Assembly: GCA_039621445.1 (NCBI GenBank)
Contig: CP154954.1
Coordinates: 5,557,919 to 5,621,918, forward strand
Direction: 5' to 3'
Length of the DNA stretch: 64,000 nucleotides
Origin: Euglena gracilis
Taxonomy: Eukaryota
Shown: piece by piece, positions 18,957-59,640 of the stretch
Numbering within the stretch: position 1 is the stretch's first letter
Layout: each line of letters opens with the position of its first letter
Notes under the pieces: generated by a model
What the model was told of the DNA's origin: nothing
Databases searched by the model: none
What the model saw: the letters and a program-made list of their open reading frames with translations, nothing else
Translations under genes and position numbers: made by a program

Positions 18957-18958
18957 GG

Positions 18959-30911: not shown

Positions 30912-32557
30912 CTAGTCCTTGATCCAATTATCTGGCAGCTTCTCCCTGGTACGTTCAGCATGATGCTGAAGATACCGTTGGAGTTGCTCCCAGAAAATAC
31001 TAGGCAGCATCACCGGCCAGATGATGTAATTCATCCGGGGGTGATTCGCAGGCACCTGCGGGGGCATCCCTGGGGTCTGCTTGAAGTTGATGTCATACAT
31101 CCACCTCGCTGTCCGACCTCTTGCGGTATGGGGCCGTAATACAGCCGCCAACTAACCTCTGAAGTCCACCAAATCGTGTTCTTCAGCAGGCCACAGTGGC
31201 AAGGCGTATCCGCCATGCTGACTCTTGGAGAACAGGGGGTAAACCTGTGTCTCCCAGTCGCCATCAGTCCAAAGGTAAGGCATTCTTACCTTGGCGTGTT
31301 CCTCGACAGCGAGGCGCATTGCCCCAGCGTCGATCTGGAACTCACGGGCCATTCCCGTGTGGCGGTAGCTTTCTACCTTTCGGAAGTCGGAGTGCTTCAG
31401 GCGGCCTTCCACCTGCTTGTACTCCTTCTTCCACTTCTCCAGTGTCTCCCAGTGGTGGGGGACAATGGTGGTGACTGCTCCATCAGCAGTCTGCACGAAC
31501 TTGGCTCCTATACAGTTGATGCACAAGGCAGGGATATCCCTGTCGTGAGCATTCTCACTGTAGGAGTAGTTCAAGCTGTGCTTCCAGGCGTTCAGGCACT
31601 CGCCACATACGAGCGCCACACAGTTCGGCACATATGCCCTGTGATGGAACCACGAGGACTGCACCTGCCGCTTGCACACATGCACAAGCGGTTGGTTGTG
31701 CCGCACATGGTGGCACACGGTGCACGTCCAGGCAAAGGACGTGCCGTGCTGGAAATCCAACACGCAGTCCTCACCAAAGTAGTGTGCCAGTACTCTGGGT
31801 GAGCGCCTGTTCCAAAATGTCCAGGTTTGTTCCGGGGCATAGTGGAAAGGTTCTCCTCGGACGAAGAGGGCTGAATCCATCGATTCAGTGACCCTTTCTG
31901 GTGCCTAATAGCAGCCAGTTTCTTCGTCCTCTCTTCCACGGTGCCTAGTCTGGTCAGGATATCCTGAGTCCAGAGCTGGGCATCCGCAGACACAGGAGGT
32001 GAAGCAGGTTCATCCTGCTCCTCATCTGTCGATCCGGCGGAAGATTGGGCCTGTCGGCCACGAGCCTTACCTTTCGGTTTGCTCTGGCCGTACCCGGACG
32101 ATGCAACGGCCGAATAGTCGTGCATTGTCGTAGGGCCTTTCGGATGTCCGCCAGTCTGACCTCCAGCGCCACCTTTCGGTGGTGGTTTCCCATCACCGCC
32201 TTTGGCAGGGGGCTTACAGGGTGCAGCACCCGGTTTGCCTCCCTTCGGCTTCGCACTCCCGGAATCAGGAGGCGACGCCTGCGGCTTACTCCTGGTATCA
32301 GGAGCCGATGGTGCCGGAGTAGACGTTTGCCGTCTGGGCGAAGCGGGCATACTGACCGCTGGGTCGCGCATGACGCTCCGAGGGGTCGGCACACGTTCCT
32401 GGGGTTGTTCAGCCGGCCGCCGCGGAACAGGATCATCCTGTCCGACGAGGCGTGGCACTGTGGTCGTCACCGGAATCGGTGCTTCCACAGGCGCTGGCGC
32501 TCCCAGAAACTCTGCCATTGTCCTTGGGACGGCAGGGACCCTGCGCGGTGTCGATGG
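30912..32557 (-). pseudogene. C-terminal part of family-D ORF3 (conserved Cys/His-rich domain 2)
   Basis: TWTFWNRRSPRVLAHYFG, WTCTVCHH, FHHRAYVPNCVALVCGEC, DIPALCINC; homologous to 3250-4374. Confidence 0.82.
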
Positions 32558-33386
32558 TGTCGGCCGCCGGCTTTCGCCGGCAGCCAAAAATTGCCAGAAA
32601 GCGCAAATTCCAAAGTCGCGGGTAACAGCCAATCAGTTAAAAAAACCCGCGACTTAAATTGGAAGCGGGTCAAATTACTTTGCGCTTTCAAATTCTGTTT
32701 TTTCACAGAACTTGAGGGGTTTTCCCCATTATTTGGCAAAGAAGAAATACATTGAATTGGATTTGATCAATCACATTGTTGAATTGGAATTGGCAGTTAC
32801 ATTGTTGGTCATTGCATTGTTGGTGGAGTCATTGAAGGCAATTTGGTATTGAAATCAAGAAGGAGAACCTACAACACCACCCTCACCGCCACTTCTATTC
32901 CCTATACCCCTCTTCCTTGCCCCAGGTTGTTTTTTTCATTACATTCAGTCACTCTCACAGATTTCAAACAGTGTGATTGCTTCTCCAGTGGGTTGGGATT
33001 CATTTCAGCTTCAGTGGGTTGGTTTGTGGGTTGGTTTGTGCAAGAGAGTGTGAGAGTGAGAAAGAGAGAAAAGTGAGATTTCAGAAAGAAAAGTTCGATT
33101 TCATTGCAAATGGCAGATTTTTCGGTGTTCACCAAATTTTCAGAAAACATTGAAAAAACGATCCTACGCGCCGGCTGGGGTTGGGGAAACCCCCTGGGTG
33201 AAAAAATGGGGGTTGGCTGGAGCCCACCAATTCCCCGAGAAAGCGCAGGCCCTGCCCCGGAAACACCCACCCCCCTGCTGTCGGTGGTTATCCAGGACGG
33301 CGAGGACCCCCCCGGGCCCTCGGCCCACCGGGACTCGCCGGTCGCGGGGGCGACCGGCGGCGCACAGGGGGTGGGGCCGGCGAACA
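32558..33386 (+). repeat. Family-B LTR1 (829 bp)
   Basis: TGTCGGCC...GAACA; repeated at 43733 and 55126. Confidence 0.95.
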
Positions 33387-33398
33387 TGGTAGCAGAGG
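33387..33398 (+). promoter_or_regulatory. PBS for initiator tRNA-Met (TGGTAGCAGAGG)
   Basis: Directly after the LTR; complement of the tRNA-iMet 3' end. Confidence 0.9.
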
Positions 33399-33438
33399 TT
33401 GGCTCACTGACTTCGTCAGTGAGATTTTTTCAGATTCG

Positions 33439-36400
33439 GTGAACGTTGTTGCAGAGATTTGTTCCGCTGCCTCTGCCAGCAGAATCAGTGCAAAGTTTTC
33501 AGATTCGGCTGACATCGCAAGTAAAGGTTGTTTCACTGACCCAGTCAGTGAAAATTTTTCAGAGACGGTCGACACGGTCACAGAGATTTGTTCTGGTGGC
33601 TGTGCCAGCAGAATGGTACACGAGGTCAATTTCATCAACCCTGTGGTCTGTGAATTTTCAGAAGAATCTGCAGAAATCTGCTCGTTTCCCAGTCAATCTG
33701 TCCGAATTTCAGATTGTGATGAAAATTTTCTGAGATCTGTGGCAGAAAGCTGTTTTCAGAACGAAAAGGAAACTGAATTTTCTGCAGCCCAGTTTTCAGA
33801 ACCTGTGGCATCATTGCAAATCATGATGGAATCTGTGGCAGAAAACAATTTTCAGGCTGCAGAAACTTTATCGTCTTCAGAATTTTCAGAAACGACACAG
33901 GAATCAGAATCTGATTCTGATTCGGAGAGGGGGTTAATAACATGCATCAGGCCTGTCACGGTGGCAGGGCCAGAAAATTTACAGCTGATTCCACTGCATG
34001 GCAGTGACGACGAATCAGACCCCCCAGCTTACAAAAGCGAATCAGAGGAAGAAAAATGAGCTGAAAACGCCATAATTCAGGAAATGGTTATACAGAGAAT
34101 GAAAGCTGCTGGCATGTGGCCAGTACATTTTTCAGGTTTTCAGCAAATTTCTGTGTCATCAGGAGACAGCAGCCCAGGGCCAGAACAAAAAATTTTGTGT
34201 TTAACAGCCCAGCCAGAACCATTGCCGTTAACACAGAGTTCAGAACCGCAGTCAGCACAGCCAGCTGCAGCCCAGCTGCAGGTTTTTCAGCCAGCCCAGC
34301 AGTTTTCGGCTGGGTCATCTGTTTCAGCAATCATGGGGCCAGCCCAGACGACTCCACAAGTTTTTCAGCCAGCCCAGCAGTTTTCGGCTGAGTCATCTGT
34401 TCCAGCAATCATGGGACCAGCCCAGATGCATGGGCAGGTTTTTCAGCCAGCGTTAACAGTGTCTTCAAACACAGGCCCAGCCCAGATTTTTCAGCCAATT
34501 CAGCCAGATTTTCCACAGACCCAGCCAATAAATTTACAGCCAAACACCAGTTTTTCTGCAGAAACTGGGTCCGAAAATGCTGAAAATCAGCATGATGTGG
34601 AAATGGAATCGGGCTATGGCCAATCTGACGATGATTGGAACAACTGGGGTGAAGAAATCAGTTGCAAAATTGAATGTTTACATGGCAGACTTTTGGTGCA
34701 GGAAGGAAAAAATCCTGAAAAAACGGCTGAAAATCTGGTGGGGGAGGCAGAAAACAGGCTAAATCAGGCATTGGCCATGTCACAGGGGCAGACATTGAAT
34801 CTGGTCAATGAGGCATTGGGCATGCATGATGGGCGAATGGCTGATCACATTGCCATGGTGAAACGTGAAATTCAGGCTGAACTGAGTGCAACTGTAAACG
34901 ACTTGCTTTTGCAGTTTCAGCAAAATGGTGAAATGGTGCAAAATCTGGCCCAATGCCAAAGGCATTTGTTGAGTGTGGAAATGGAACGGCAGTTTGCTGA
35001 AAAAGTGAAGAAAGTGGAGGATGGAGTAAACACGTTTTTTGAGGCCAAGGTTGAGGGGTTGAGAAAAAATGAGAGGGATTTTTCTCAGAAACTGTCGATT
35101 TTGGAAAAATCTGTGGGGGAGATGCACGTGGTGGTGCAACAAGTGGGGGAGAAGGAAAAACAGCAGGAAATTGCTGTTAATCAGGTCAAATCTGCAGTCG
35201 GTGAGCTAAGCTCTGGTCTGGAGGGACGCTTTGGGATCATTTTTCAGCAATGTAAAAGTTTGGGGGAGACTGAGTGTGCCAAATTTCAGGCGCAGGCTGA
35301 GAAATTGAAGGAATTTTCACAGTCCCTGGAGCGAGAGAGCAAAGCTCTGAATGATCGTTTGGGGAGGTTGGAGAATTTTCTGGGTCGGAAAGATTTTCCC
35401 ATTGAGAAAGTCTGTGACCTGATTAACAAGAGCGAGGAAACAATTCGGTTGGAGGTGCAAAGGGAGTTCGGGTTGCAAACGAGAAAGAATCTGGAGGTCA
35501 TTATCAGTGAAATGTTGCAGGAAAGGTTGAGGCTGAGTGAAAGGGAGGGGCAGTTTGAAAAAGTTCGGGCTGAAATGGAAAATTCGATGAAACAGCAGGT
35601 TGGAGTTTTACTGCAACAGCAGTCCAGTGAACTTTTTAAAGAACAGCAGGAGCAGAAAAAATTGCGACAAAAGCTGGATTTATTTCAGGCTGAGATTTGG
35701 TGATGAAAAATCAGCAAGCTGAATCTGCCAAATCTGCGACAGTGGATCTGACAAAGGAAACGAGAGAAAAATCAGCTTGAAACCTAGAAATCGAAGAGTT
35801 TGATCTTTTTGGTTACAACGATTTACCTGTGATCGAGAAAAATCCGGTTGAAATTGAAGGCTATGAATACGCTGAACCAGGGTCACATGCGACACATGTC
35901 AGGCAGGTTTGTGCACGACCTGTGGGGGCAGTGCCTGCAGGTGCAGGGCTGGTTCCATCAAATGCAGTGGCAACACATCAATTGATGAAAAACCTGGTGG
36001 CTCCAAATTTTTCTGGACAGCCAAAAGACTGGTCGTCCTTTGTGCGGGATTGGGATCAATATTTCAGGACGTTGGTTATTTTGCTAAATGGACATATGTC
36101 TGATTCACTCAAGCTTCAGCTTTTTGCAATGACGCTGGACGACACAAATAAAAAGGAATTGCAATTCCGACTGGAATTGAACGGAAAAACATCTTTCGAG
36201 GAGGAATTTGACAGGCTTGAAGGAAAATATGCTGGAACTCAATCCGAGTGTGCCAGAAAAAAATGGTATGATGTGAACCTCGTGAACCAAGGGAAAATTA
36301 CCGTACAGGAATGGCGAGATTTTGTCATAAATTTCAGAATAGCCTGGAGACAGGTGAAAAGCGCCACTGACGATGAGGCAGAAAGACTGGTCAAGGGAAA

Positions 36401-37268
36401 ACTGCCAAATTTCATTTTGCATTGGGTCGCCGATGAGGAGGAAAGGAAATCAACGTGTGGACCGAAAGTCAAAATGTACCCTGGAGTGCCTGCAACCGAG
36501 GAAAACATTATTTGTGCTGTGGAACGTGTCACTGGGGAAAAGCCCTGCAAGGTTTCGAAAGTTTCACCGCTGGAGTTCGAAGTCTTTTTGCCCAACACTA
36601 CGATTTGCGACAAACTGAAAGAGGTCAGTGGGAAACCAATCACAGGCACGGATAAAAGGATCAAAATTGTGGAGGAACAGCCAAAAATGGGAGTTGAAGA
36701 AATTTTCCGTTTTGTTGAGCGAAAATTGTCTTCCAGGGATTCTCAAGACATGATACACAGTTCCAGGGAGCCAAATGCATTTGGAAACCGGAGGGCCAGG
36801 TCTGCTAAGGCAGATCGGGCCAAGGGGTCCAGGACACCCTCCCCAACACGGTCAGCCAAGGGGGGCGAAACGGTGGCAAAACCGTCCGTTGGAAAATCAG
36901 ATTCACAGGTGGCAGCTCCTGCGACCAATGCAAACGTGAACCCCCCCGTGCAAAATCCAGTGCCAGTGGTTCGATCACAGTCATTGCCACCCCCCCAGCA
37001 ATCGCAATTTGGCCATGGGGGGGGATGGAGAAATGATTCTGGGAGGAATTCCAATGCCAATGCCAATTTTCAAGGAAATCAGTGGTGGAACTCAAATCAA
37101 CGGAATTTTGATTCACAGTCTGGTGGTGGCAAAGGCAAAGGCAAAGGCAAGGGCAAAGGAAACAATTCTTGGGGGAAAGGAAACAATGGAAATGACTGGT
37201 CTAGGGGAAAGGGCCAGGATGGTGGAAAAGGCAAAGAAAAAGGAAGGGGGAAAGGAAACCGATGCTAG
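33439..37268 (+). pseudogene. gag: Family-B gag, copy 1 (ancestrally one ORF of about 1300 aa)
   Basis: Pieces 33439-34059, 34084-35703 and 35829-37268. TGA at 34057 is GGA in copy 2, and there is a 1-nt deletion near 35697. Coiled-coil, capsid-like motif and GK-rich tail. Confidence 0.88.
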
Positions 37269-37535
37269 GACAGCCGGGGTGGACCGTTGGGGGCGGGAGC
37301 CGCCCCGGGGTCGCATACCCAGCCCCACACAAAGACATACGCAAATCCCAGGTGGCATGAAAAATCTCGTGTGAGTGAAAACACGATGAAAAATCTGCCA
37401 TCCCAGGAGACCTTTGCGCAAGGTGTGTCCAGTGTGTCGGGTGCGTGTGTGCGTGACGTGCAAATCTGTGATTCAGCCCAAATCTGTAAAAAAACAGACC
37501 TCATAAGAGGTCGTGCACAGCCTTCCGTAAAGAAA

Positions 37536-38122
37536 AGAGCTTTAGACCTTTTTTGCAGTAAAGGCTCGGTTGGGGATTGCCTGAGAGAGCAGGGGTTTAA
37601 GGTTGTGTCAGTGGACATAAACCCCAGATTTAACCCAACCCACTGTGCAAATATTTTGGAGTGGAGATATTGGAGGTACCCCCCCGGATATTTTCAGATC
37701 ATCGCTGCGGGGGTGCCCTGTACAGAATACAGCTTGGCCAAAACATTGGGAGTCAGAAATTTGGAGGGGGCAGATCGGCTGTTCAAAAAAACTTTGGAGA
37801 TTGTGGAATATTTCAAGCCAAAATTGTGGTGGATTGAAAATCCCCGTCATGGACTTTTGCGGAAAAGACCCTGTGTTCAAAATCTGACTTTTGTCGATGT
37901 TGACTATTGTCAGTTTTCAGATTGGGGATATCAAAAGCCCACCCGAATCTGGGGGAGCGAAAATCTGAGCAAGCTACAAAACAAACTTTGTGATGGCCAG
38001 ACCTGCCCGAATTTGATTCCTGGGGGGAGGAGTCACCGAGAAAAGTTGGGAGGATATGGAATGACAGTTGGCACCCAGAAAAAATGGAGGATGCCCAAAC
38101 AACTGGTGGAGTATTTGTTAAC
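37536..38122 (+). CDS. C5-cytosine DNA methyltransferase domain of Pol (copy 1)
   Basis: LDLFCSKGS (G to S in motif I relative to copy 2), VVSVD, AGVPCTEYS, WWIENP, YQKPTRIW. Confidence 0.9.
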
Positions 38123-38157
38123 CGTGTTGGAACGAAAAAGCGGATATCGTAGGGAGG

Positions 38158-38544
38158 ATTATGCTGTTAGGAAAGTTTGTATGGAGGAAATTGAGAAGGA
38201 ATTTCGGGTTAAGGCGGAACGGGATTGTTTTGCAACCAGCCAAAATACCAGGTGTGAAAAGTTTTACGGGGAGGATGATGATGCCATGAAAAAGGATTGG
38301 GGGGCGGAGGAAACGTTGTGGATGAACCCCCCCTGGACTTTGTGGCCTGAGGTGGCTGAAAAATTGCAAAATTCCAATTGTCGGGCGATTTGTATTTGCC
38401 CAGACTGGAATAGGAGGTGGGTGAAAAATCTGGTGGCTATGGCTGTCAAAAAGATTTATTTTCCCAAGGGGACAAAGTTGTTTGAGGCTGATGGGAGGAT
38501 TTTGAGGGGTACCCGTTGGGGGGTGTGGGCCTTGTTGATCGATA
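38158..38544 (+). CDS. Dam-like N6-adenine methyltransferase domain of Pol (copy 1)
   Basis: RDCFAT, DAMKKDW, LWMNPPW (NPPW at 38325-38336), ICICPDW. Confidence 0.87.
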
Positions 38545-41500
38545 GAAGGCAACCCTCCCAGGGGGGGGCAACCCCAGGGAAGAAAAAATTGGTTCGGCTG
38601 AAAAAAAGAATGTTGAGGGGGACAAAAACTCGGGGAGGAGCAAAGAAACTCGGGGAGGACAGACAACTACTGGTGAAAACCCAGATTAGGTTGGCAAATG
38701 GGGAGGAAAAAACGGCCAGAATTTTGATTGACACGGGGGCGGAGGCAAACCTCATTCGACAAGGGTTGATAGGGGACCACCTAATGTATCCTGCTAAGGA
38801 CCCGTTAAGGTTTGAAACTGCCAATGGGCAAACTTTGGCGGGGGGGAGCAGATGTGCTAAGGTGAAAATGATCCTTCAACAAAATTGGAATGAGGAAAGG
38901 GAAATTGAGTGTGTGGAATATGAGGTTGAATTTTATGAGGCAAATGTCAAAGTTGATGCCATTCTTTCTTATCCATGGTTGGCGGAGGCAAAACTGGGAT
39001 TTTTCCACACCACAAGGCGTTGGTAAAAGACAGCCCCGACCTGATTTTTTTGCGGGGTGTTGAAAGACGGAGGGGTCCGCAAAAATTCAGGGATGACACA
39101 AATTTTTCAGTGGACAACGTGACTGTGGCAGACGGGTCTTCGTTTGGGTTGCAAAAACTTGGTCTTTGTTTGCCATTGGAAGGGTTGGACCAGGAATTGC
39201 AATTTTTGAGTGATGAGGACCTGGGGGAGGTTGCCACAAATTTGGAGGGGAGTGACCCCCCAGTGCAAGTTATCAACCGAATGATAATTGCAAGGGAGGG
39301 GGAGGACAAAAAAAGAGGATGAACGGGTGGTTAAGTTGAGGGAACAAGTTTTGGAAGATTACCGGGGGACGGTATTTCGGTCATCGCCATTTCCAGACCC
39401 CCCCGAAAGAGGACAATATGGTTATGCATACATACCTTTGAAGGAGGGGGCAAAGCCAACCAGACAGAAGCCTTTTTTCATGCACGGTGAGCGGAAAGAG
39501 GCACTTGAGAAAATCACACAAGATTGGCTCGACAAAAAATACATTGAGCCAGCCACAGCCAAAAATTCTGAATGGCTGTCCCAGACTTTTCCAGTTCCAA
39601 AAAAATCCAACGATTTTCCTTGGAGGGGGGTGGTGGACCTCAGGGGCCCAAACAGCCAAACAAGGCGATGCAACTACCCCCTACCCAAAATTGAAGACAT
39701 TTTGGTCAAACATGGTGCAAACCAAATGTTTTCAATCATCGATTTGAAGCAAGCTTTCCACCAACAACCCCTACACCCAGAAAGTCGACCCATAACGTGT
39801 TGTTTTACCCCCAAAGGCATTTTTCAGTGGAGGGTGAACGTAATGGGTTTGACAAATGCCCCCCAGCAATTTCAGCAAATGATCGATGACCGTTTGACAC
39901 CAGTAAGGGACATCGCCACAGGGTACATAGACGACATACTGGTGGGGACAACAGTCGGGGAAGGGGAGGACCTGGTGGGGGCACACGAAAAAGATTTGAG
40001 GAGGGTGTTGGAAGTGCTCAAAACAGAACTTTTGGTGGCTGATGAATTCAAAGCCAAACTTTTTGTGGAGGAGGTTGAATTTTGTGGCCAAATTTTAGGA
40101 AACGGGACTAGGAGGCCTGCACCGGGTAAGTTACGAGCGATCGAAAAGTGGGAGGTTCCAAAAACAATTACGGCTTTGAGAGCCTTTTTGGGATTCACAA
40201 ATTATTACAATGCATACATTCACATGTATGCGGAAGTAGCTGCCCGGTTGCAAGACAAATTGAAAGTCCCCAGGGAGGTGGGAAAGAAAGGAAGTCGAAA
40301 ACCTGTGGAATTTGATGGGGAGGATTTAAAAGCTTTTGAGGAGCTGAAAAAAAGGTTGTGTTCGGGCCTAATGTTGCAACGGGTAGACCCAGATAAACCC
40401 TTTGTGCTAAGGGTTGATGCCAGTGGGTACGCCGTTGGGGCAACGTTAGAGCAAATGAAGGAGGGGGGAGGAAGACCCACAGCCCAGGATGTGATTGAGA
40501 AAAAAACTGTGCCAGTGGCTTTTATGTCTCGAAAATTGACCGAGGGGCAAAGAAAATGGACCCCCAGGGAGTTGGAGACGTACGCCATAATTTTGGCACT
40601 ACAAAAATGGGAGAGTTGGATTGGATTGCAACCCGTTTTGGTTTTAACCGACCACCAAAGTTTGGAGTCTTGGACAAGGGAAGTCCTAGACACCCCCAGT
40701 GGTCCGGTTGGGAGGAGGGCGAGATGGCATCAAATTTTCTCCAAGTATGATTTGACGGTGGGATATATCCCGGGTAAAGAAAACACCATAGCCGATATCC
40801 TTAGTCGGTGGGCATACCCAGCTTCACAGGCCCTAAGGGACATAAGTAAGCACGGGTCAGCCGAAGACAAGGATGAAATGGAAAATTTTATCCGGGAGGA
40901 AAAAGAAGAGGAAAAACAGTGTTTGGAGATAAGAATCAAAAACCAGCCCAATTTACGTAATGCCTGGATACGGGGGGTGAACACCCGTAGTGGCAAAAAC
41001 GTAACACCTGAGGAGGAAAAAGGAGAGTGCACAAGGAGGGGAACCGAGGGTGGGGTAGACCCAGGAGGAAAAGACACCCCTGTGGACACCCACTCACAAG
41101 GGCCCAGGAAAGAAAAGAAACGAGTTCATTTTTGGGATGAGAAAGTGGGGGGGGAGACGACCCCTGTCCCGGAGACGGCTGAAAGTTCGAGGGGGGACAC
41201 TCGTATGGAAGTGGGGGACGCCCTGCCAAGTACGACCCCTAAGGATATTAAGCCCGTATGGGAGCGTGATTGGGGGGAAGCATATTCCCGATGCCCCACA
41301 TGGAAAGAAAAATGGGTAGCTACCAAAGGCGATTCAATTTGGCCAAAGGGTTTCAAAGTGCTAAATGGCCAATTGTTTTTCGAGGAAAAGTTGTGTGTGC
41401 CTGAAAGTTTTCAACACTTGGTGATTCAAGAAATTCACGAGTTTTTGGGGCACGTTGGCCCTGAAAAAGTTTGGAAACACATGGCAATCCGTTTTGTTTG

Positions 41501-44541: not shown

Positions 44542-44587
44542 TGGTAGCAGAGGTTGGCTCACTGACTTCGTCACTTTTTCAGATTCG

Positions 44588-48580: not shown

Positions 48581-48847
48581 GATAGCCGGGGTGGACCGTT
48601 GGGGGCGGGAGCCGCCCCGGGCTCGCATACCCAGCCCCACACAAAGACATACGCAAATCCCAGGTGGCATGAGAAATCTCGTGCGAGTGAAAACACGATG
48701 AAAAATCTGCCATCCCAGGAGATCGCTGCGCAAGGTGTGTCCAGTGTGTCGGGTGCGTGTGTGCGTGACGTGCAAATCTGTGATTCAGCCCAAATCTGTA
48801 AAAAACCAGACCTCATAAGAGGTCGTGCACAGCCTTCCGTAAAGAAA

Positions 48848-49434
48848 AGAGCTTTAGACCTTTTTTGCGGTAAAGGCTCGGTTGGGGATTGCCTGAGAGA
48901 GCAGGGGTTTAAGGTTGTGTCAGTGGACATAAACCCCAGATTTAACCCAACCCACTGTGCAAATATTTTGGAGTGGAGATATTGGAGGTACCCCCCCGGA
49001 TATTTTCAGATCATCGCTGCGGGGGTGCCCTGTACAGAATATAGCTTGGCCAAAACATTGGGAGTCAGAAATTTGGAGGGGGCAGATCGGCTGGTCAAAA
49101 AAACTTTGGAGATTGTCGAATATTTCAAGCCAAAATTGTGGTGGATTGAAAATCCCCGTCATGGACTTTTGCGGAAAAGACCCTGTGTTCAAAATCTGAC
49201 TTTTGTCGATGTTGACTATTGTCAGTTTTCAGATTGGGGATATCAAAAGCCCACCCGAATCTGGGGGAGCGAAAATCTGAGCAAGCTACAAAACAAACTT
49301 TGTGATGGCCAGACCTGCCCGAATTTGATTCCTGGGGGGAGGAGTCACCGAGAAAAGTTGGGAGGATATGGAATGACAGTTGGCACCCAGAAAAAATGGA
49401 GGATGCCCAAACAACTGGTGGAGTATTTGTTAAC
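48848..49434 (+). CDS. C5-cytosine DNA methyltransferase domain of Pol (copy 2, motifs intact)
   Basis: LDLFCGKGS (FxGxG), GVPCTEYS, WIENP, QKPTRIW. Confidence 0.92.
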
Positions 49435-49469
49435 CGTGTTGGAACGAAAAAGCGGATATCGTAGGGAGG

Positions 49470-49856
49470 ATTATGCTGTTAGGAAAGTTTGTATGGAGGA
49501 AATTGAGAAGGAATTTCGGGTTAAGGCGGAACGGGATTGTTTTGCAACCAGCCAAAATACCAGGTGTGAAAAGTTTTACGGGGAGGATGATGATGCCATG
49601 AAAAAGGATTGGGGGGCGGAGGAAACGTTGTGGATGAACCCCCCCTGGACTTTGTGGCCTGAGGTGGCTGAAAAATTGCAAAATTCCAATTGTCGGGCGA
49701 TTTGTATTTGCCCAGACTGGAATAGGAGGTGGGTGAAAAATCTGGTGGCTATGGCTGTCAAAAAGATTTATTTTCCCAAGGGGACAAAGTTGTTTGAGGC
49801 TGATGGGAGGATTTTGAGGGGTACCCGTTGGGGGGTGTGGGCCTTGTTGATCGATA
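49470..49856 (+). CDS. Dam-like N6-adenine methyltransferase domain of Pol (copy 2)
   Basis: DCFA and WMNPPW (NPPW at 49637-49648), ICPDW. Confidence 0.88.
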
Positions 49857-52800
49857 GAAGGCAACCCTCCCAGGGGGGGGCAACCCCAGGGAAGAAAAAA
49901 TTGGTTCGGCTGAAAAAAAGAATGTTGAGGGGGACAAAAACTCGGGGAGGAGCAAAGAAACTCGGGGAGGACAGACAACTACTGGTGAAAACCCAGATTA
50001 GGTTGGCAAATGGGGAGGAAAAAACGGCCAGAATTTTGATTGACACGGGGGCGGAGGCAAACCTCATTCGACAAGGGTTGATAGGGGACCACCTAATGTA
50101 TCCTGCTAAGGACCCGTTAAGGTTTGAAACTGCCAATGGGCAAAATTTGGCGGGGGGGAGCAGATGTGCTAAGGTGAAAATGATCCTTCAACAAAATTGG
50201 AATGAGGAAAGGGAAATTGAGTGTGTGGAATATGAGGTTGAATTTTATGAGGCAAACATCAAAGTTGATGCCATTCTTTCTTATCCATGGTTGGCGGAGG
50301 CAAAACTGGGAATTTTTCCACACCACAAGGCGTTGGTGAAAGACAGCCCCGACCTGATTTTTTTGCGGGGTGTTGAAAGACGGAGGGGTCCGCAAAAATT
50401 CAGGGATGACACAAATTTTTCAGTGGACAATGTGACTGTGGCGGACGGGTCTTCGTTTGGGTTGCAAAAACTTGGTCTTTGTTTGCCATTGGAAGGGTTG
50501 GACCAGGAATTGCAATTTTTGAGTGATGAGGACCTGGGGGAGGTTGCCACAAATTTGGAGGGAAGTGACCCCCCAGTGCAAGTTATCAACCGAATGATAA
50601 TTGCAAGGGAGGGGGAGGACAAAAAAGAGGAGGAACGGGTAGTCAAGTTGAGGGAACAAGTTTTGGAAGATTACCGGGGGACGGTATTTCGGTCATCGCC
50701 ATTTCCAGACCCCCCCGAAAGAGGACAATATGGTTATGCATACATACCTTTGAAGGAGGGGGCAAAGCCAACCAGACAGAAGCCTTTTTTCATGCACGGT
50801 GAGCGGAAAGAGGCACTTGAAAAAATCACACAAGACTGGCTCGACAAAAAATACATTGAGCCAGCCACAGCCAAAAATTCTGAATGGCTGTCCCAGACTT
50901 TTCCAGTTCCAAAAAAATCCAACGATTTTCCTTGGAGGGGGGTGGTGGACCTCAGGGGCCCAAACAGCCAAACAAGGCGATGCAACTACCCCCTACCCAA
51001 AATTGAAGACATTTTGGTCAAACATGGTGCAAACCAAATGTTTTCGATCATCGATTTGAAGCAAGCTTTTCACCAACAACCTTTACACCCAGAAAGTCGA
51101 CCCATAACGTGTTGTTTTACCCCCAAAGGCATTTTTCAGTGGAGGGTGAACGTAATGGGTTTGACAAATGCCCCCCAGCAATTTCAGCAAATGATCGATG
51201 ACCGTTTGACACCAGTAAGGGATATCGCCACAGGGTACATAGACGACATACTGGTGGGGACAACGGTCGGGGAAGGGGAGGACCTGGTGGGGGCACACGA
51301 AAAAGATTTGAGGAGGGTGTTGGAGGTGCTCAAAACAGAACTTTTGGTGGCTGATGAATTCAAAGCCAAACTTTTTGTGGAGGAGGTTGAATTTTGTGGA
51401 CAAATTTTAGGAAACGGGACTAGGAGGCCTGCACCGGGTAAGTTACGAGCGATCGAAAAGTGGGAGGTTCCAAAAACAATTACGGCTTTGAGAGCCTTTT
51501 TGGGATTCACAAATTATTACAATGCATACATTCACATGTATGCGGAAGTAGCTGCCCGGTTGCAAGACAAATTGAAAGTCCCCAGGGAGGTGGGAAAGAA
51601 AGGAAGTCGAAAACCTGTGGAATTTGATGGGGAGGATTTAAAAGCTTTTGAGGAGCTGAAAAAAAGGTTGTGTTCGGGCCTAATGTTGCAACGGGTAGAC
51701 CCAGATAAACCCTTTGTGCTAAGGGTTGATGCCAGTGGGTACGCCGTGGGGCAACGTTAGAGCAAATGAAGGAGGGGGGAGGAAGACCCACAGCCCAGGA
51801 TGTGATTGAGAAAAAAACTGTGCCAGTGGCTTTTATGTCTCGAAAATTGACCGAGGGGCAAAGAAAATGGACCCCCAGGGAGTTGGAGACGTACGCCATA
51901 ATTTTGGCACTACAAAAATGGGAGAGTTGGATTGGATTGCAACCCGTTTTGGTTTTAACCGACCACCAAAGTTTGGAGTCTTGGACAAGGGAAGTCCTAG
52001 ACACCCCCAGTGGTCCGGTTGGGAGGAGGGCGAGATGGCATCAAATTTTCTCCAAGTATGCATTGACGGTGGGATATATCCCGGGTAAAGAAAATACCAT
52101 AGCGGATATCCTTAGTCGGTGGGCATACCCAGCTTCACAGGCCCTAAGGGATATAAGTAAGCACGGGTCAGCCGAAGACAAGGATGAAATGGAAAATTTT
52201 ATCCGGGAGGAAAAAGAAGAGGAAAAACAGTGTTTGGAGATAAGAATCAAAAACCAGCCCAATTTACGTAATGCCTGGATACGGGGGGTGACAACCCGTA
52301 GTGGCAAAAACGTAACACCTGAGGAGGAAAAAGGAGAGTGCACAAGGAGGGGAACCGAGGGTGGGGTAGACCCAGGAGGAAAAGACACCCCTGTGGACAC
52401 CCACTCACAAGGGCCCAGGAAAGAAAAGAAACGAGTTCATTTTTGGGATGAGAAAGTGGGGGGGGAGACGACCCCTGTCCCGGAGACGGCTGAAAGTTCG
52501 AGGGGGGACACTCGTATGGAAGTGGGGGACGCCCTGCCAAGTACGACCCCTAAGGATATTAAGCCCGTATGGGAGCGTGATTGGGGGGAAGCATATTCCC
52601 GATGCCCCACATGGAAAGAAAAATGGGTAGCTACCAAAGGCGATTCAATTTGGCCAAAGGGTTTCAAAGTGCTAAATGGCCAATTGTTTTTCGAGGAAAA
52701 GTTGTGTGTGCCTGAAAGTTTTCAACACTTGGTGATTCAAGAAATTCACGAGTTTTTGGGGCACGTTGGCCCTGAAAAAGTTTGGAAACACATGGCAATC

Positions 52801-54507
52801 CGTTTTGTTTGGGCTGATGAAAAGGCTGCAAAGCAACTCAACCAAAATTGCAGCAAAAATTGTTCCACATGCCAAGCGAGTGTGAGGGGGGAGAGTTTGA
52901 AAGGACCGATCGAGTCCACACCCATACCCCCTGCACTAATGACAAGTGTTGCCATCGATTTGTTTCGAATGCCAAGGGTTTTACACGATGGGGGGGAGTA
53001 CGACACCCTAGCCCTTTGTGTGGATAGGCATTCGGGTTGGATTGTGGGGGTTGCATGCAAGGACAAGGGATTAACCGGTGCCAAGTTGGCTAAGGAAATG
53101 GTGAAAAATCAGTGGAGGCCTTTTGGGGTTCCCTCGGTCATCTCAAGTGACCAAGGGAGCCATTTCACAAGCACTTGGTGGAAAAACATGTGTGCACTTT
53201 TGGGGATTAGGCAAGCGTATTCCCAAGCATACCACCACCAAGCAAACGGGAGGGTTGAGAGAGCCGGACAACAGGTAATGGAGGTGTTGAGAAAATTGTA
53301 CGTGGAGGAAAAAATTAATTGGGTTGAAGCTTTACCCCAAGTTTTGGACCGAATTCATGACGTAAAGGGGGAAAGCGGATTGAGCCCATATGAAATTGTG
53401 ACTGGAAGGGAAAGACCATTGGCAGGGGTACCCTACCAACCACCCAAAGAATGTGAGGATTCGGTGGAGTTTTTCCGAAGGATGCAAGACATTGATGGGA
53501 GGGTGGCTAGGATACTCAACAAAAAGCACGAGGAGGAGGTGGCAAGGATAAATTAGGGGCGGTTAGGAAAGGAACCCCTAAAGGTGGGGACGACGGTTTG
53601 GTATAGGAGACCCGAGGGGTCGGGTGAGAAGCTTGACTCTAGGTGGGTGGGACCTGGGGTCGTGAAGGGTAGAGAAGGGGAACGGAGTTATGTAATTGAG
53701 ATGAAATCTGGGGTGGAGACGAAAGCTCATAGGAGTTTTTTGAAGAAGTATGGGGAACCCCAAGTGGAAGGTAAGGGGGTGCCTCTTTTTTATTATAAAC
53801 GAACCGAAAAAGAAGAAGAGGCATTACCTGATGAGTGGGAGGTGGAAAAAATTCTAAGGCACCGGAAAGGAAAAGATGGAAAATGGGAATTTTTGACCAA
53901 GTGGGTCGGATATGAGGACGGGGAGGAAACCTGGGAACCGGCAGGAAATTTCATTCACAGATTCAGTGGGGAGTTTGTGAAGTATTCCCGTGAGAAAAAA
54001 GTGAAAATGGACATAATGTCCGAACTTAAAATTGACGGTGGGCCATAGGCTCTAAGGTGAGCCATAAGGCCCTGTCCAAGGCTCTACGGTGAGCCTAATG
54101 GGAAGGCAAAGTGCTGTTTTTAAAATTCAAAAACCCGATTTGCACGTCCGTGTGGGTGTGAGTGCACGCACACACGCATGAGCGTGTAAAGGAGAGAATG
54201 TACAAATGCAAGGATTTGCAAGGAGAATAAAAAAAAAAAAAAAAGGCCCCGCAAGGGGGCCGGGGCCACCTCAGTATATTCGCCGCCGCATTGCTGTTGT
54301 ACTCGCCCCACTGCATGCTGCACTTATTTGTACTGTACTCCCCCACTGCGCTTTATTTTGTCACCGCGTATATACCCCACTGCGCCTATATTTGCCGTCC
54401 TCTCTCTCTCTCTCTCCGGTGTTGTTGTAGGTTCGGAGATTGATTCTTTGAGATGATGGGTTACATTGTGTTTGGGTGTCCTTGGTCACATAATGAGCCC
54501 CCCTACG

Positions 54508-54860
54508 GTTTGACAAAAAATCCCCCCGGCCCGAGGAGGGGGGGGGGCACTTGGATTTTTAAAATCCCCCCGGCCCGAGGAGGTGGGGGGGCGCTTGATT
54601 TTTTGACAAAAATCCCCCCGGCCCGAGGAGGGGGGGGGGGCGCTCGATTTTTTGAAAAAAACCCCCCCGGCCGGGGGGGGGGGGGGGGGGGGCGCTAGAT
54701 TTTTTGACAAAAATCCCCCCGGCCCGAGGAGGGGGGGGGGGCGCTTGATTTTTTGACAAAAATACCCCCGGCCCGAGGAGGGGGGGGGGGCGCTCGATTT
54801 TTTGACAAAAATCCCCCCGGCCCGAGGAGGGGGGGGGGCGCTCGATTTTTTGACAAAAAA
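54508..54860 (+). repeat. About 42-bp C-tract/G-tract tandem repeats in the 3'UTR of copy 2
   Basis: About 8 units are visible. Confidence 0.9.
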
Positions 54861-55125
54861 ACCCTCATACCACCCGTGAGAAGCGGGGGGGGGGGGCAGC
54901 CAAATATTCATTGCTTGGTGAACCGAGTTTTTCCCAAAGGTTCGAAGGCACTTGAAAGCCATAGTCCCTGAATTTTGTTTCCCATTTGTTGAATCAAGGA
55001 AGAATGGGTGTGGGACATAGGCTTTGGATGAAAGAGTGCCGAATGGAGGATTTCCCCCCCATTGTTGAGGAACGGGGGGGGGGGGGCGAGTTTTTGGTGT
55101 CCGACCAAGGTCGCAAGGGAGGGGG

Positions 55126-55953
55126 TGTCGGCCGCCGGCTTTCGCCGGCAGCCAAAAATTGCCAGAAAGCGCAAATTCCAAAGTCGCGGGTAACAGCCAA
55201 TCAGTTAAAAAAACCCGCGACTTAAATTGGAAGCGGGTCAAATTACTTTGCGCTTTCAAATTCTTTTTTTTCACAGAACTTGAGGGGTTTTCCCCATTTT
55301 TTGGCAAAGAAGAAATACATTGAATTGGATTTGATCAATCACATTGTTGAATTGGAATTGGCAGTTACATTGTTGGTCATTGCATTGTTGGTGGAGTCAT
55401 TGAAGGCAATTTGGTATTGAAATCAAGAAGGAGAACCTACAACACCACCCTCACCGCCACTTCTATTCCCTATACCCCTCTTCCTTGCCCCAGGTTGTTT
55501 TTTTCATTACATTCAGTCACTCTCACAGATTTCAAACAGTGTGATTGCTTCTCCAGTGGGTTGGGATTCATTTCAGCTTCAGTGGGTTGGTTTGTGGGTT
55601 GGTTTGTGCAAGGGAGTGTGAGAGTGAGAAAGAGAGAAAAGTGAGATTTCAGAAAGAAAAGTTCGATTTCATTGCAAATGGCAGATTTTTCGGTGTTCAC
55701 CAAATTTTCAGAAAACATTGAAAAAACGATCCTACGCGCCGGCTGGGGTTGGGGAAACCACCTGGGTGAAAAAATGGGGGTTGGCTTGAGCCCACCAATT
55801 CCCCGAGAAAGCGCAGGCCCCACCCCGGAAACACCCACCCCCCTGCTGTCGGTGGTTATCCACGACGGCGAGGACCCCCCGGGCCCTCGGCCCACCGGGA
55901 CTCGCCGGTCGCGGGGGCGACCGGCGGCGCACAGGGGGTGGGGCCGGTGAACA
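55126..55953 (+). repeat. Family-B LTR3 (828 bp)
   Basis: TGTCGGCC...GAACA followed by the ATGG TSD; closest to LTR1. Confidence 0.95.
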
Positions 55954-55957
55954 ATGG

Positions 55958-58900
55958 TCGTGGGGGTATCTCCTCCACTTCCATGTCGACATCCGGTCTA
56001 GGAGGTTGATCCTCCACAACCGCTGGCGCAGGTACTACGGGAGGTTGATCCTCCGCTGTAGCTGGTGCGACAGATGGCTCTGTCGGCTGGGGTTCATCCC
56101 CTGAAGATGGTTGCACTGCTGCCGGAGATGGGGGTGCGGGGACACCGACATCTGGTGTCTCCACGACCTCGGCGGCGGAGCTTGATGCTACGCCTCCACC
56201 TCGTGGCGTTAGTGCAGCAGCCACGGCAGTAATGCCGGTGACGACGGCGCCGAGCACACGGCCTTCTAATGAGGTGCGTGCTGCGGGGCTGGTAGGTTCT
56301 TCGAGGATATCCTCGACGACCATACCAGTCACCTCGGCTGGAGGCTCAGCCGTTGGAACAGGCGTAGCAGCCCCAGGTATATCCCCTGCGGGTGCTTCGT
56401 CTGGCCTAGGCTGTGCCAGAGTAGGCAGAGCAGCGTAGAGGATATCCTCCACGTTCTCACCTACCTCCTCAGGAAGTTCCTGGTCTCCACCTACCGGTGG
56501 ACAGACGGAAGCCGCCGCGGGAGCCGGGGAAACCGATCATTCTCCTGCCGCTCGAGGGGCAGAGACGAAGGATACAGCCGTTCCTGTCGGAGACGGCGGC
56601 GCTGCCTCTAGAATGGTGACGGAGGGGCTGCGGTCGCGTACCTCCCGCCGCGGAATCGCGGTGGTGGAAGCGACTGACGCCTCCCGTCTCCTTCGCGCCA
56701 GAGGTTCATCCTCTGGGGCGATGAAGGCGCGCAGATCCTCGGGCGAACGAGGACCGTCGGGGTGCCATCGACATCCCTGAGCGTCCGCCAGCCTGTAAAA
56801 TGCCAGCGTACTGCTGCTGGCGCTGTTGGGCCAGGGTGGCGGCCATGATGGCTGCACCCAGGCGTTGGCAGGCCTGTTCGCGCCCAGGAAGCTGCGGTAA
56901 CGCGTGTCTTCCCAGACCTCGAAAAGCCCTCCTCGAACTCCTGAACGCATGCCAGAATCGGCATACGCTGTTCGAGGATGGCCTTCGGGTGACACATCAG
57001 CGGAAGGAATACCTCCCGGTTGAGGGTACCGCCAAACTGCCGCCGCAAATGTTCCTCCAGGCTGCTATCAGCCAGGTGCCAGTTGGGGCGCAGGTGGCCG
57101 AGAATCTGACGACGAGGACCCTCGATGGCGTCACCGTAATCCGGTGGCAGGCTTTCCATTCCAGGCCTATCGTCCTGGGGATCACGGAGATGTATATACA
57201 CCTCCATGACTTAGGTGGTCCAGGCTCGCCACCAGAACTGCTGCAGCATAAAAATACGCTGCTTGTGGACGCGGCGACTTCTGCCCCGGACATCCGGGGC
57301 GTCGCGGCACACACGCATAAGCATGTGGCGTCCCATCTCCAGGCCCGGGTTATCCCGAGGCGGTGGAGGACTTCCGGGCACGCCGAATCCCCAGAAGTCG
57401 ACAGGAAATTCCTGCCGGCAGTACTTACAGCAGAGGTCATACCTCTGCGGGTAAGCCAGGGAAACGCGCTTAACGCGGAAGGTGGAGCCGTAATGGTTCA
57501 CCAGCCACACCTGGAGGTTGTTGCACCACAACACCTCGATCAGGCGTTCGACGCCGGGATGTAGTGGGTAGAATTCCCACTGCACGCCGAGGGGTCCGAC
57601 TGTATGAATACAATCGAAGTAGGCCTTCAGCCTCCGGGCCAACACATGCTGGTCCCGTAATCCCAACTGGTGCAGGTAACTGCGACCAGTGGAATCGCTG
57701 AAGAGACCCCAGTTCTGGCAGGGGTATCCCAGCCAAAACCAGAGCTCCCAGAAACCCGGCTGGGCATCCAGCAAGGGTCTGCCACCTTCACCTTCGAAGC
57801 CGTACAGATCTTTTCCGTAAGGGAATAGTCTGACTCGGTTCTCGGTGTGGCGTAATACCACATCGATGACTGCCTGTGGAGGAGTGACGGGGCGGTTTCC
57901 TGCAACATGGTAATCATGCTGCATTCGCCAGCCTTCGTCCTCCAGCTCCTCCTTGAACCTGAGCATATGCTCAAAGTCCGAGAGGACTTCTGCTGGTTCC
58001 TCTTCTTCCTCACGTGCTGTTCCCTTACCTTTACCCTCACCCTTCCCTTTGCCGGCCACGCCTTTGCCTTCTCCCTTGCCTTTGCCCTCGGCCCTGCCTG
58101 TGTCCTTTCCCGTCTGGCGAATACCAGAGGGTCGGGCGCTCGGTGCCGCAGGAGTCGGTTCGGTTCCTTCCCATTCCATCTCTGGGGAGGGACCTGGCCG
58201 CTCCGCTGCACGTCGCGGTGATGGCGTGGCTGGGCGTTGGCTAGGAGTCTGGCGTGGGCTTGGCTTCGACGCAGGGGGTCGCGGCTCCTTCCATACCGGA
58301 GGGATTGGCGGTGGCATTGCGGCAACAGGACGGCTCATCGCCACCTGTGCCTCCGGTGGTCGTCCAGCCGGGGTATCCTGGCTGGCTTCCACCTGCATTG
58401 CCACACCGCCGTCCGCGTCCCGTGGGCTGGGTCGCCTGGGTTGTGTGGAAAGGTTCTCCGTAGTCCTGTCGCGCTTCAGGGTGGCAGGTAATGCTGCCAC
58501 ACCTGCCGGGGGCTCACCGGGTAATACCGGGGTTGCCACCCGCAGCTGCGGCTGGTACGGATGTTAGGGGGTGTATCCACGGCCCTGAAGGGCAGCCAGA
58601 GAGGAGTAATACCTCGTCCGGTGCTCTTCAGACGCGAATACTGGCTCCTGCAGGAAGTGCCGAGCAAGCTCATCCTGCTCGGTTCCCGGAGGTGCCATGT
58701 GATAGTAGGGAGTCTCCTGCCGACGGGGGATATCCCCAGTCTGGACAGGAGCTGCACTGGGCGGTCGGGCTGCCTCACGGTGGGGAGGTTCATCCACCAC
58801 CACTATGGGCTCCGCCTGCCGCCGTGGCTCAACGCCAGGGGCAGGGGCGACCGGTGATGCCTGTGACATGTGTTGGACGTATGCCTCAGGGGGCACGTCC

Positions 58901-59640
58901 GACTGTCCGGCCGGGAGCACGCGTGCGCCGCGCGGGTAATCCGCGTGCGTCGCGTACCGCGAGACAAATTGCTCCGCTGGCGACTCGCGCGGCGGCATTC
59001 GCTGCGGCGAGAGCGGGCGAGCAAAAATTCTCGTCATCCCAGGTGGGACATGCACAGCCTCACCTACCGGTGGGGGCGTGTGCTCACGCATGTGCACGGT
59101 GTGGGATCCCACCGGCGTCTGCGTTTGCAGCATGGGCGGCACATACACGCCCAGGTCCATCATTGTCTCGCCAGGCTCGAATCAGGAATCGGATGCCGAC
59201 GAGAAATACCGTCTCCCCGTCATCAGGGCTTGACCACAGGGACACCACTGAGCCACCGGGGTGTTGGCTACCACCAACAACTCAGCACAGTACGCATCCC
59301 AAAGGGCTTGCATAAAGGGCTCCGTTGGGGGGTGTGCGCACATACGCATCGCCCGCTCCAACGTCTCCGTAGTGCGGAAGATCATCTCTCCCGCATACGG
59401 GGGCAGGCGCGATCTGCGCTGCGCTGGTGGCTGAGGTGCCGGCTGCTGGACGGCAGATGGATCTGGTACCGCATATGCTGACCGGCTGCTGGTAGCCGCG
59501 GCGAATACCGGGGCTGAAACCCTCTCAGCATGTGGGGCACCCGAAATCGGGGCCTCAGCATACTGAGGGTACTGGGGGTATGGCGCGCCAGAAGGCTGCG
59601 GCCATGGTGGACCTGGTCCAGGTCCGCGCCCAGGCAGCAT
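55958..59640 (-). pseudogene. N-terminal and central part of family-D ORF3 (conserved domain 1)
   Basis: ORFs 59182-59640, 58564-59163, 57211-58539 and 56608-57207 are all in one frame, separated by stops. One frameshift leads to 56537-56995 and 55856-56452. Confidence 0.82.

Follow-up and report, generated by a model that had tools for sequence, protein, structure and literature searches.

A long third reading frame with two conserved Cys/His/Trp-rich modules in an abundant Euglena gracilis chromovirus

Among Ty3/Gypsy retrotransposons, extra 3′ open reading frames are known as the env genes of insect errantiviruses and as the env-like frames of the plant Athila and Tat lineages. The element described here, element D of Euglena gracilis, resembles these in having an extra long frame between pol and the PPT or 3′ LTR. 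Unlike the errantivirus, Athila and Tat env frames, however, this third frame, ORF3, is without a signal peptide, a clear membrane anchor or a match to an env family, and it is much larger (~ 1,830 codons), with a product that is probably disordered over most of its length and contains two Cys/His/Trp-rich modules.

Within the same host lineage, the main text of a recent report describes Euglena chromoviruses (DAM-LTR / EpiLTR) shown to carry DNA methyltransferases (bioRxiv 10.64898/2026.05.21.726589). Element D shares with these, as they are described there, a backbone with a Dam-like region and a chromodomain; unlike them, it gave no Pfam match to a DNA methyltransferase (DNMT). The terms ‘ORF3’, ‘additional ORF’ and ‘accessory’ are absent from that main text, and our literature search found no published ORF3 of Euglena LTR retrotransposons. 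A more distant parallel is offered by arthropod Copia elements, described as having captured a methyl-CpG binding domain whose binding was shown, whereas its action on chromatin is supposed (PMC6673714). These elements likewise carry an extra non-replicative module, but the module in the Copia account is a known host domain, whereas those of ORF3 match no known family and are read from sequence.

Element D lies on the minus strand of the window, the 64,000-nucleotide stretch of E. gracilis DNA that was analyzed. Its pol (59837..63532, with the stop at 59837-59839) comprises a Dam-like region, RT, RNase H, IN with SH3 and a chromodomain, and is matched by the Pfam models RVT_1 (E 5e-24), RT_RNaseH (1e-20), SH3_Tf2-1 (2.5e-7) and Chromo (8e-11); the IN region is placed by its alignment with the integrases of other elements. 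Judged by the order of RT, RNase H and integrase together with the C-terminal chromodomain, element D is a Ty3/Gypsy chromovirus. The Dam-like region (62852-63532) falls below the PF05869 cut-off of 28.1 bits (23.4 bits, E 5e-5), and its counterpart in element B, a Dam region to which it aligns at E 1e-10, passes the cut-off with 41.3 bits. At the 3′ end, a PPT-like purine run (30742..30758, minus strand) overlaps the ORF3 stop and is followed by a TG at 30741, where the 3′ LTR presumably begins, and the flank downstream of ORF3 is common to that of D′, a second copy described below. The 5′ LTR lies beyond position 64000; what the window holds of an LTR pair or target-site duplication is limited to the purine run, this TG and the shared flank.

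The initial annotation had proposed that, once an insert of family B is excised, a single frame with a few stops and about two frameshifts runs from 59640 to 30912. The frame was confirmed, and its end moved. ORF3 starts with an ATG at 59640 on the minus strand, 197 nt after the pol stop. Its upper part (55958..59640, minus strand) runs in frame 0 to ~ 56921 and then in frame 1, and its lower part (30744..32557, minus strand) continues in frame 1 from 32557 before passing into frame 2 beyond a C-run near 31866. Two bases are missing, both in homopolymers (the T-run at 56921 and the C-run near 31866); the stops are more than a few, as six lie in frame (59184, 58566, 57213 and 56539 in the upper part, 31154 and 30914 in the lower). 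The TAG at 30914, close to the proposed end, aligns with a Trp in D′, and the terminal TGA lies at 30746-30744, so that ORF3, read through, measures 5,497 nt plus the two lost bases, or 1,832 codons. For a stop count, ORF3 was divided into nine segments by cutting it at four of the six stops; within these, 2 stops lie in the proposed frame, compared with 35 and 61 in the other two sense frames. The long frame is real, beyond chance expectation. In this copy, ORF3 is nonetheless a pseudogene: the six stops and the loss of one base at two places disrupt it, and a 23.4-kb tandem dimer splits it.

This dimer, the family-B insert (32558..55957, plus strand, 23,400 nt), has the arrangement LTR-internal-LTR-internal-LTR, with LTRs at ~ 32558-33386, 43733-44541 and 55126-55953, a PBS starting at 33387 and an ATGG target-site duplication. 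It encodes DNMT, Dam, PR, RT, RNase H, IN and a chromodomain; the DNMT, Dam and chromodomain are as the main text of the Euglena report describes for DAM-LTR / EpiLTR (10.64898/2026.05.21.726589). Since the length of the insert is a multiple of three, the ORF3 frame is unbroken across its excision.

Other copies were found in public sequencing runs, which were examined as assembled contigs and may contain DNA. The family of element D is among the most abundant, a chromovirus of the Euglena gracilis type, and a single DNA run yielded 50,709 contigs that map to 9 kb. In all four of four runs, contigs end at ~ 55955, with unaligned letters that correspond to window positions 32527-32553; thus, other family copies are uninterrupted at exactly the point of insertion. 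Two of the stops, at 57211-57213 and 56537-56539, are private to this copy, and other copies have sense codons there: in run X1, the change at position 57211 is T>A or T>G over about the whole depth, and that at position 56539 is A>G, with a count of 280,951 of 321,131. An additional A after 56921 is present in 215,534 out of an X1 depth of 589,778, as well as in the sole X15 contig and the sole X17 contig. The remaining ~ 63% of the X1 depth is without the base, and this frameshift is therefore common to many copies.

The spacer between pol and ORF3 (59641..59836, minus strand) is rich in indels among copies and includes a pyrimidine run ending in AG ~ 60 nt before the ORF3 ATG. In run X15, 14-16 unaligned letters occur at 59652 and at 59701. 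A 2,402-nt contig from an RNA library spans 57915-60311 and bridges pol and ORF3, and no joints were seen in the contigs of three RNA-type runs. The contigs revealed no splice, strand or start of a transcript.

D′ (3253..6788, minus strand) is a second and diverged ORF3 region, in which domain 1, linker and domain 2 follow one another as in D; several stops and frameshifts interrupt it. Conservation of both domains, as first noticed in the annotation, is borne out by tblastn, with 27% identity over 288 aa in domain 1 (E 7e-23), 48% and 39% identity in domain 2 (E 4e-52) and 41% in its C-terminal extension, whereas blastn detected no match between D and D′. The two families differ by 50-70% at the protein level. 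Across domain 2, identity at the first, second and third codon positions is 0.60/0.70/0.35 and 0.60/0.61/0.37, and pS is 0.80 and 0.74 versus a pN of 0.35 and 0.40; in shifted-frame controls, pS and pN are about equal. The corresponding codon-position values in domain 1 are 0.51/0.58/0.34. Third positions are thus near random in both regions, and the protein was therefore under purifying selection. The first ~ 550 codons and the segment 56920-56540 have no counterpart in D′; the openness of the frame is what backs the former, and the latter has hardly even that. Within the window, no recognizable pol adjoins D′, so the arrangement of pol followed by ORF3 is seen once in the window, plus in the one bridging contig.

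Domain 1 (56990..57990, minus strand) is a Trp-rich globular region of ~ 350 aa that continues ~ 70-90 residues beyond the private stop at 57213. It carries the motifs FW..F.LGY..N, G(I/V)QW and YPQxY...CxxC......DFWGF, then His/Cys, and its CxxC...H..C element resembles a zinc ribbon. Domain 2 (30747..31996, minus strand) consists of a Cys/His/Trp-rich region and a C-terminal extension, ~ 400 aa in all; twelve Cys/His are kept between D and D′, enough for two or three putative zinc sites. The two domains show no relationship to each other (hhalign E 0.7), and ahead of each stand a basic Gly/Lys run and then an acidic EE.EPA motif. The spacers are rich in Pro and Ala, as had been noted (P 13.5-15.8%, A 9-15%), and most of the protein is Pro/Ala/Gly-rich and probably disordered.

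Neither domain could be assigned to a family, in keeping with the initial annotation, which did not recognize them. All eight ORF3 pieces were without a Pfam match at E up to 0.1, and Pfam searches with the alignment members and, at E up to 10, with selected pieces and the 101-residue core of domain 2 returned only noise. NCBIfam and PHROGs gave no match to ORF3, and in the PDB, searched by sequence with the domain-1 profile as well as with single sequences, the best hit had an E of 0.13. AlphaFold models were poor for domain 1 (pLDDT 54.7, core ~ 70-80) and for domain 2 (pLDDT 35.8). With the weak domain-1 model, Foldseek found nothing in the PDB at E 0.001 or better, and a BFVD fold search reached E 0.12 at best. 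Neither model lends structural support to zinc binding or to any activity. An Atlas lead to a C5 DNA methyltransferase for domain 1 (score only 0.87) was rejected, as there was no PF00145 match and BLASTP against the element B DNMT gave a best E of 0.26.

The CxxC and His/Cys clusters have the spacing of small zinc modules such as RING, PHD, C1 and zinc ribbon, but no Pfam model reaches even E 0.01, and to our knowledge the spacing fits no textbook zinc signature. Atlas leads to RING/C1-type features in domain 2 are weak (scores of 0.80-0.83 only), as are matches of residues 194-244 of the protein P0006 to zinc-ribbon-type HMMs. On the Cys/His patterns and these leads, zinc binding by ORF3 seems marginally probable.

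ORF3 sequence is present in transcript data. Domain 2 matches E. gracilis transcripts; the EukProt E. gracilis protein P0001 is 97% identical, and P0011 is a protein of the D′ type. Another protein, P0002, reads a different frame at 31930-31880; comparison with D′ and P0001 identifies it as a frameshifted copy and not as an alternative frame. For domain 1, a search of 1.84 billion representatives yielded six matches, five of them credible; the relatives are distant and metagenomic. Two of the matches, ENA proteins with lengths of 332 and 470 aa, share the domain 1 motifs and lie on short contigs, where they look stand-alone. A word-based search found no homologue of domain 1 at near lengths, and profile scans of metagenomic and viral contigs gave no confirmed locus for its relatives.

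Could such a frame be no gene at all, either a fortuitous opening in repeat DNA of high GC content or decayed remnants that have no function? The GC content of 61-63%, the long frames on both strands (279 and 283 aa, for example, on the plus strand) and the eight breaks in this copy would suit this. However, the protein similarity to D′ comes without DNA similarity, third codon positions are saturated while first and second positions are conserved, and transcript-derived proteins exist. In addition, the whole proposed frame has only six stops, two of which are private to this copy, and the segment counts separate it from the other frames. ORF3 is very probably a genuine gene of the element. 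Its dismissal as no gene is extremely improbable and, where domains 1 and 2 are concerned, largely refuted; it may still apply to the N-terminal ~ 550 codons. If it is a gene, its location between pol and the 3′ LTR is the classical env position, and one borderline hydrophobic stretch in the Pro/Ala-rich linker, GRVLGAVVTGITAVAAALT (56207..56263, minus strand; Kyte-Doolittle 19-residue mean 1.58), keeps its character in D′ and could be a membrane anchor. The annotation had seen neither a signal peptide nor a transmembrane stretch. By hydropathy scan, the former holds, as there is no N-terminal hydrophobic core and no 19-residue window in the first 1,040 residues is at or above 1.4; the latter has to be qualified on account of the segment at 56263-56207. 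This segment is, however, single and borderline and has linker sequence on either side. The Cys/His clusters belong to the type seen at intracellular zinc sites, and no env family was matched in Pfam. An envelope or membrane-anchored protein is accordingly very improbable, and it is likely that ORF3 is not env.

The modules could also be captured Euglena cellular genes that travel as passengers with no role in the element life cycle. The GC content of ORF3 (0.63 and 0.58) is far above that of pol (0.49), as might be expected of sequence from outside the element, perhaps from the host, and both the stand-alone-looking relatives of domain 1 and the D′ copy with no adjoining pol can be taken in the same sense. 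A mere passenger would decay, however, whereas this protein was under selection while the families diverged, and module order, linker features and 3′ flank are the same in two families so far apart in protein sequence. We consider a passenger improbable, though an origin by capture is compatible with an accessory gene. Less probable still is a second polyprotein, from which the protease of the element would separate domains 1 and 2 at the repeated linker motifs. The long linkers, the mutually unrelated domains and the Gly/Lys-rich basic run with acidic EE.EPA before both modules would be in accordance with it, but cleavage is a proposal made from the sequence, and the EE.EPA motif is short, lies in low-complexity sequence and is only loosely kept in D′.

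The explanation that we favor is a real accessory gene, in an abundant chromovirus with a Dam-like region, for an intracellular zinc-binding, non-env factor with its own mRNA; taken as a whole, this is reasonably probable. Intact relatives would encode a ~ 1,830-residue protein with two lineage-restricted globular modules, which may aid the element inside the cell, as a zinc-binding factor that attaches to chromatin, to nucleic acid or to a host protein. The protein would come from a dedicated mRNA arising from the pol-ORF3 spacer and would not be made as an extension of pol. Here, we infer zinc binding, intracellular location, expression mode and function. From the annotation’s proposal of a novel zinc-binding accessory protein, the genuine extra gene stands: purifying selection is present, and no known env, captured known host gene or other known family was matched; its zinc binding keeps the lesser strength given above. 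The anti-silencing or targeting factor that the annotation gave as an example stays a suggestion, and a role related to chromatin or silencing is possible but doubtful. A more specific version, in which ORF3 belongs to an epigenetic toolkit of Euglena chromoviruses, is unlikely: one of the modules would have a new fold for reading or shielding methylated DNA or chromatin, with the aromatic-rich domain 1 as the reader and the multi-zinc domain 2 as an adaptor to DNA or protein. Expression would be through a distinct mRNA, which trans-splicing within the spacer might generate, and ORF3 together with the Dam-like enzyme and the chromodomain might allow escape from the heavy CG methylation of the host.

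We read ORF3 as an undescribed accessory gene with two conserved modules that match no known family. The E. gracilis genome is described as ~ 2.4 Gb in size and more than half repeats (PMC11252322). A conserved, selected gene of ~ 1,830 codons in an abundant family means that a large share of the genome encodes an undescribed protein. Were ORF3 a passenger, it would still record a capture event and mark the family for annotation. Should its targets prove to be chromatin or nucleic acids, ORF3 would add to a wider picture of retrotransposons that assemble host-interaction modules, and would contribute two new domain families.

Element D, a minus-strand Ty3/Gypsy chromovirus at the right end of the window, carries a third long frame, ORF3, after pol. 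A Dam-like region (62852-63532, minus strand; PF05869, E 5e-5, under the Pfam cut-off) is followed by Pfam-recognized reverse transcriptase and RNase H (61142-62848, minus strand) and by an integrase C-terminus with SH3 and chromodomain (59840-60778, minus strand), which ends at a stop at 59837-59839. ORF3 begins with an ATG at 59640 (minus strand) after a 197-nt spacer and terminates at a TGA at 30746-30744 (minus strand). The initial annotation had placed its end at 30912, but the TAG at 30914 aligns with a Trp in D', a second, diverged copy of the ORF3 region (3253-6788, minus strand). The TGA overlaps a purine run followed by TG, presumed to be the PPT and the start of the LTR. With an insert removed, ORF3 measures 5,497 nt, which together with the two bases it lacks makes 1,832 codons. 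The D family is extremely abundant, as 50,709 contigs from one DNA run match the 9 kb at 55000-64000.

The insert (32558-55957, plus strand; 23,400 nt) cuts ORF3 and is flanked by a duplicated target, ATGG. It is a tandem dimer of one element, family B, arranged LTR-internal-LTR-internal-LTR (three LTRs, two internal regions) with a repeat spacing of ~11.3 kb and units 96-100% alike, and probably arose by unequal recombination. It codes for protease, reverse transcriptase, RNase H, integrase and chromodomain; the part 5' of the protease adds a fragment of a C5 DNA methylase (PF00145, 22.7 bits) and also a Dam domain (41.3 bits). Because 23,400 is divisible by three, the ORF3 frame is equal on both sides. 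In contigs of all four public runs compared with 55000-64000, the match ends at ~55955 and the letters beyond are those of 32527-32553; the family thus has other copies that are unbroken exactly there. The long frame proposed across the excised insert is real, with corrected boundaries.

Several further repeats lie in the window. Dam-like regions occur upstream of protease/reverse transcriptase in three different chromovirus families: besides that of D, one lies at 9530-10393 (plus strand) and another at 37269-39023, with a twin near 49493-49891 (plus strand). Near the 3' end of element B is a tandem array (54486-54900, also 43090-43261) whose minus-strand translation repeats PPPP.AGG.F.KKSSA, and 1-1903 (minus strand) is a further family-B fragment (RT/RNase H) 88% identical to the insert. 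The segment 19431-19659 (74% to 63758-63998, upstream of the Dam-like part of D) adjoins 18958-19277 (91% to 29615-29929, the 3' flank of D), an arrangement suggestive of a relative of D altered by deletion or recombination. Just upstream of a plus-strand chromovirus, a 426-nt direct repeat (7938-8363 and 9231-9654; 99.5% identical, 1,293 nt apart) may represent the two LTRs of a tiny non-autonomous element. A 1.2-kb repeat has one copy interrupted by 28155-29087 (~930 nt), which starts with a 122-nt repeat (28155-28276) present as an inverted copy at 28862-28983 (97.5% alike) and looks like a small TIR element.

Where a few stops and about two frameshifts had been described, this copy of ORF3 contains six in-frame stops (59184, 58566, 57213, 56539, 31154 and 30914), whereas the frameshifts are indeed two, each the loss of a single base: one from a T-run at 56921 (TTTT), the other from a C-run near 31866 (CCC). 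In contigs of other copies, practically the whole DNA-run depth has a sense codon in place of the stop at 57211-57213, and 280,951 of 321,131 have one in place of the stop at 56537-56539. Of the DNA-run depth at 56921, 215,534 of 589,778 retain the base lost here, as do the single contigs of runs X15 and X17. At the C-run, P0001, a database protein derived from the EukProt E. gracilis transcriptome, is continuous in frame, and D' requires a frameshift at the same site. Since both losses lie in homopolymers, assembly error is possible for both; other possible causes are a mutational hotspot common to D and D' or, with lower probability, programmed slippage.

Could ORF3 be no gene at all? The region is GC-rich (0.63 and 0.58) with long open frames on both strands, so openness alone is weak evidence. 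Across nine segments, cut at four of the six stops, there are 35 and 61 stops in the two remaining sense frames, compared with 6 in the whole proposed frame (2 of them inside the segments). D' keeps the parts of ORF3 in the same order, namely domain 1 (about 57990-56990 in D, minus strand), a Pro/Ala-rich linker, domain 2 (about 31996-30747, minus strand) and a C-terminal extension. The conservation of both domains noted initially is borne out, at 27% identity over 288 residues for domain 1 (E 7e-23) and 48% and 39% for domain 2 (E 4e-52), and the extension is 41% identical; blastn finds no D' match at the DNA level. For first, second and third codon positions, the share of identical nucleotides is 0.60/0.70/0.35 and 0.60/0.61/0.37 for domain 2, compared with 0.51/0.58/0.34 for domain 1. 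In domain 2, pS is saturated (0.80 and 0.74) and pN is not (0.35 and 0.40), a contrast that vanishes when the same DNA is read in a shifted frame. Codon-position identity and pS versus pN thus indicate that the ORF3 protein was under purifying selection while the D and D' families diverged. The window holds no recognizable pol beside D', nor a D' counterpart for the first ~550 codons or for 56920-56540. Related sequence also follows ORF3 in D and D' (3' flanks 67-78% alike over 336 and 82 nt), which supports a common element boundary as the end of ORF3 in the two copies. A less likely reading is that ORF3 is a passenger host gene.

A membrane or env-like protein would suit the position of ORF3. 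A hydropathy scan found no signal-peptide-grade hydrophobic window in the first 1,040 residues, in line with the initial annotation; its claim of no transmembrane stretch is not entirely correct, since there is one hydrophobic segment (56263-56207, minus strand), which is borderline (mean 1.58), lies within a linker and keeps its character in D'. The protein is probably intracellular rather than an envelope. It is mostly Pro/Ala/Gly-rich (P 13.5-15.8%, A 9-15%), which bears out the Pro/Ala-rich spacers first noted. A second polyprotein cut at a repeated linker motif is a further alternative: in front of each of the two domains, which are mutually unrelated, stand a basic Gly/Lys-rich run and then an acidic EE.EPA motif (58100-57990 and 32150-32000, minus strand), and the Logan fragments P0002, P0004 and P0010 contain this prelude too. 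It may be a processing or targeting signal.

Neither domain resembles a known family, as had been suspected: ORF3 has no match in Pfam, NCBIfam, PHROGs or PDB sequences. Among 1.84 billion representatives, domain 1 has six matches. The repetitive 1,412-residue P0007 is probably spurious, three are short Euglena-like fragments, and the remaining two, ENA metagenome proteins with 332 and 470 residues, contain the invariant motifs FW..F.LGY..N, G(I/V)QW and YPQxY...CxxC......DFWG, then His/Cys. The CxxC region of the database protein P0006 gives weak zinc-ribbon-type matches (Lar, terminase gpA, primase; E 0.04-0.19). A feature-based lead to a C5 DNA methylase is not supported for domain 1, which has no PF00145 match and is unlike the genuine DNMT of the insert. 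Fold searches with its weak model (pLDDT 54.7) returned nothing above noise, and the domain 2 model (pLDDT 35.8) is unusable; a new fold is possible. Domain 2 keeps 12 Cys/His between D and D' (CxxCH, C, HH, C, CxxC, H, CxxC), with weak RING/C1-type feature leads (scores 0.80-0.83).

Domain 2 is 97% identical to P0001, and P0011 is a second transcript protein, of D' type; the window thus comes from E. gracilis or from a very near relative. One contig, from a library recorded as metatranscriptomic RNA, covers 57915-60311 without gaps (pol end, spacer and ORF3 start); such contigs are blind to strand, starts and levels, and may derive from carried-over DNA. Contigs of three RNA-type runs over 55000-64000 showed no joints. 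Indels number at least 12; among the entries listed, beyond which there are 22 more, 8 of the 12 indels fall within 60 nt of the spacer (59716-59775) and three in ORF3 (the frame-restoring base, one of 3 nt, one of 2 nt). This distribution fits a non-coding spacer and a coding ORF3 body. The ORF3 protein would come from a separate mRNA that arises in the spacer; a pyrimidine run there ends in AG ~60 nt 5' of the ATG.

D is thus an abundant chromovirus with a selected extra 3' gene, and transcript data contain the sequence of this gene. Of the accessory zinc-binding protein initially envisaged, the selected extra gene, the lack of a secretory signal and the zinc-site-like Cys/His clusters are observed, along with long flexible linkers; the remainder we infer. 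From its conserved residues, at least domain 2 quite plausibly binds zinc. The protein would bind nucleic acid, chromatin or a host protein, to the benefit of the element; a role related to chromatin or silencing is possible, if rather doubtful.

Ty3/Gypsy lineages with an additional ORF between pol and the 3' LTR are known; ORF3 is like such ORFs in position, but has none of the env features. A 2026 preprint (10.64898/2026.05.21.726589) describes Euglena DAM-LTR and EpiLTR elements with Dam, DNMT and chromodomain. The insert fits the EpiLTR architecture presented there, and D has the Dam-like and chromodomain backbone in common with these elements; the terms 'ORF3', 'additional ORF' and 'accessory' are absent from the main text of the preprint. 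A search on ORF3 of Euglena LTR retrotransposons found no relevant description, and within the literature searched ORF3 is undescribed. D is an LTR retrotransposon with an accessory ORF that carries two unannotated domain families. ORF3 is of moderate interest, which a demonstrated role in chromatin or methylation would raise to high.
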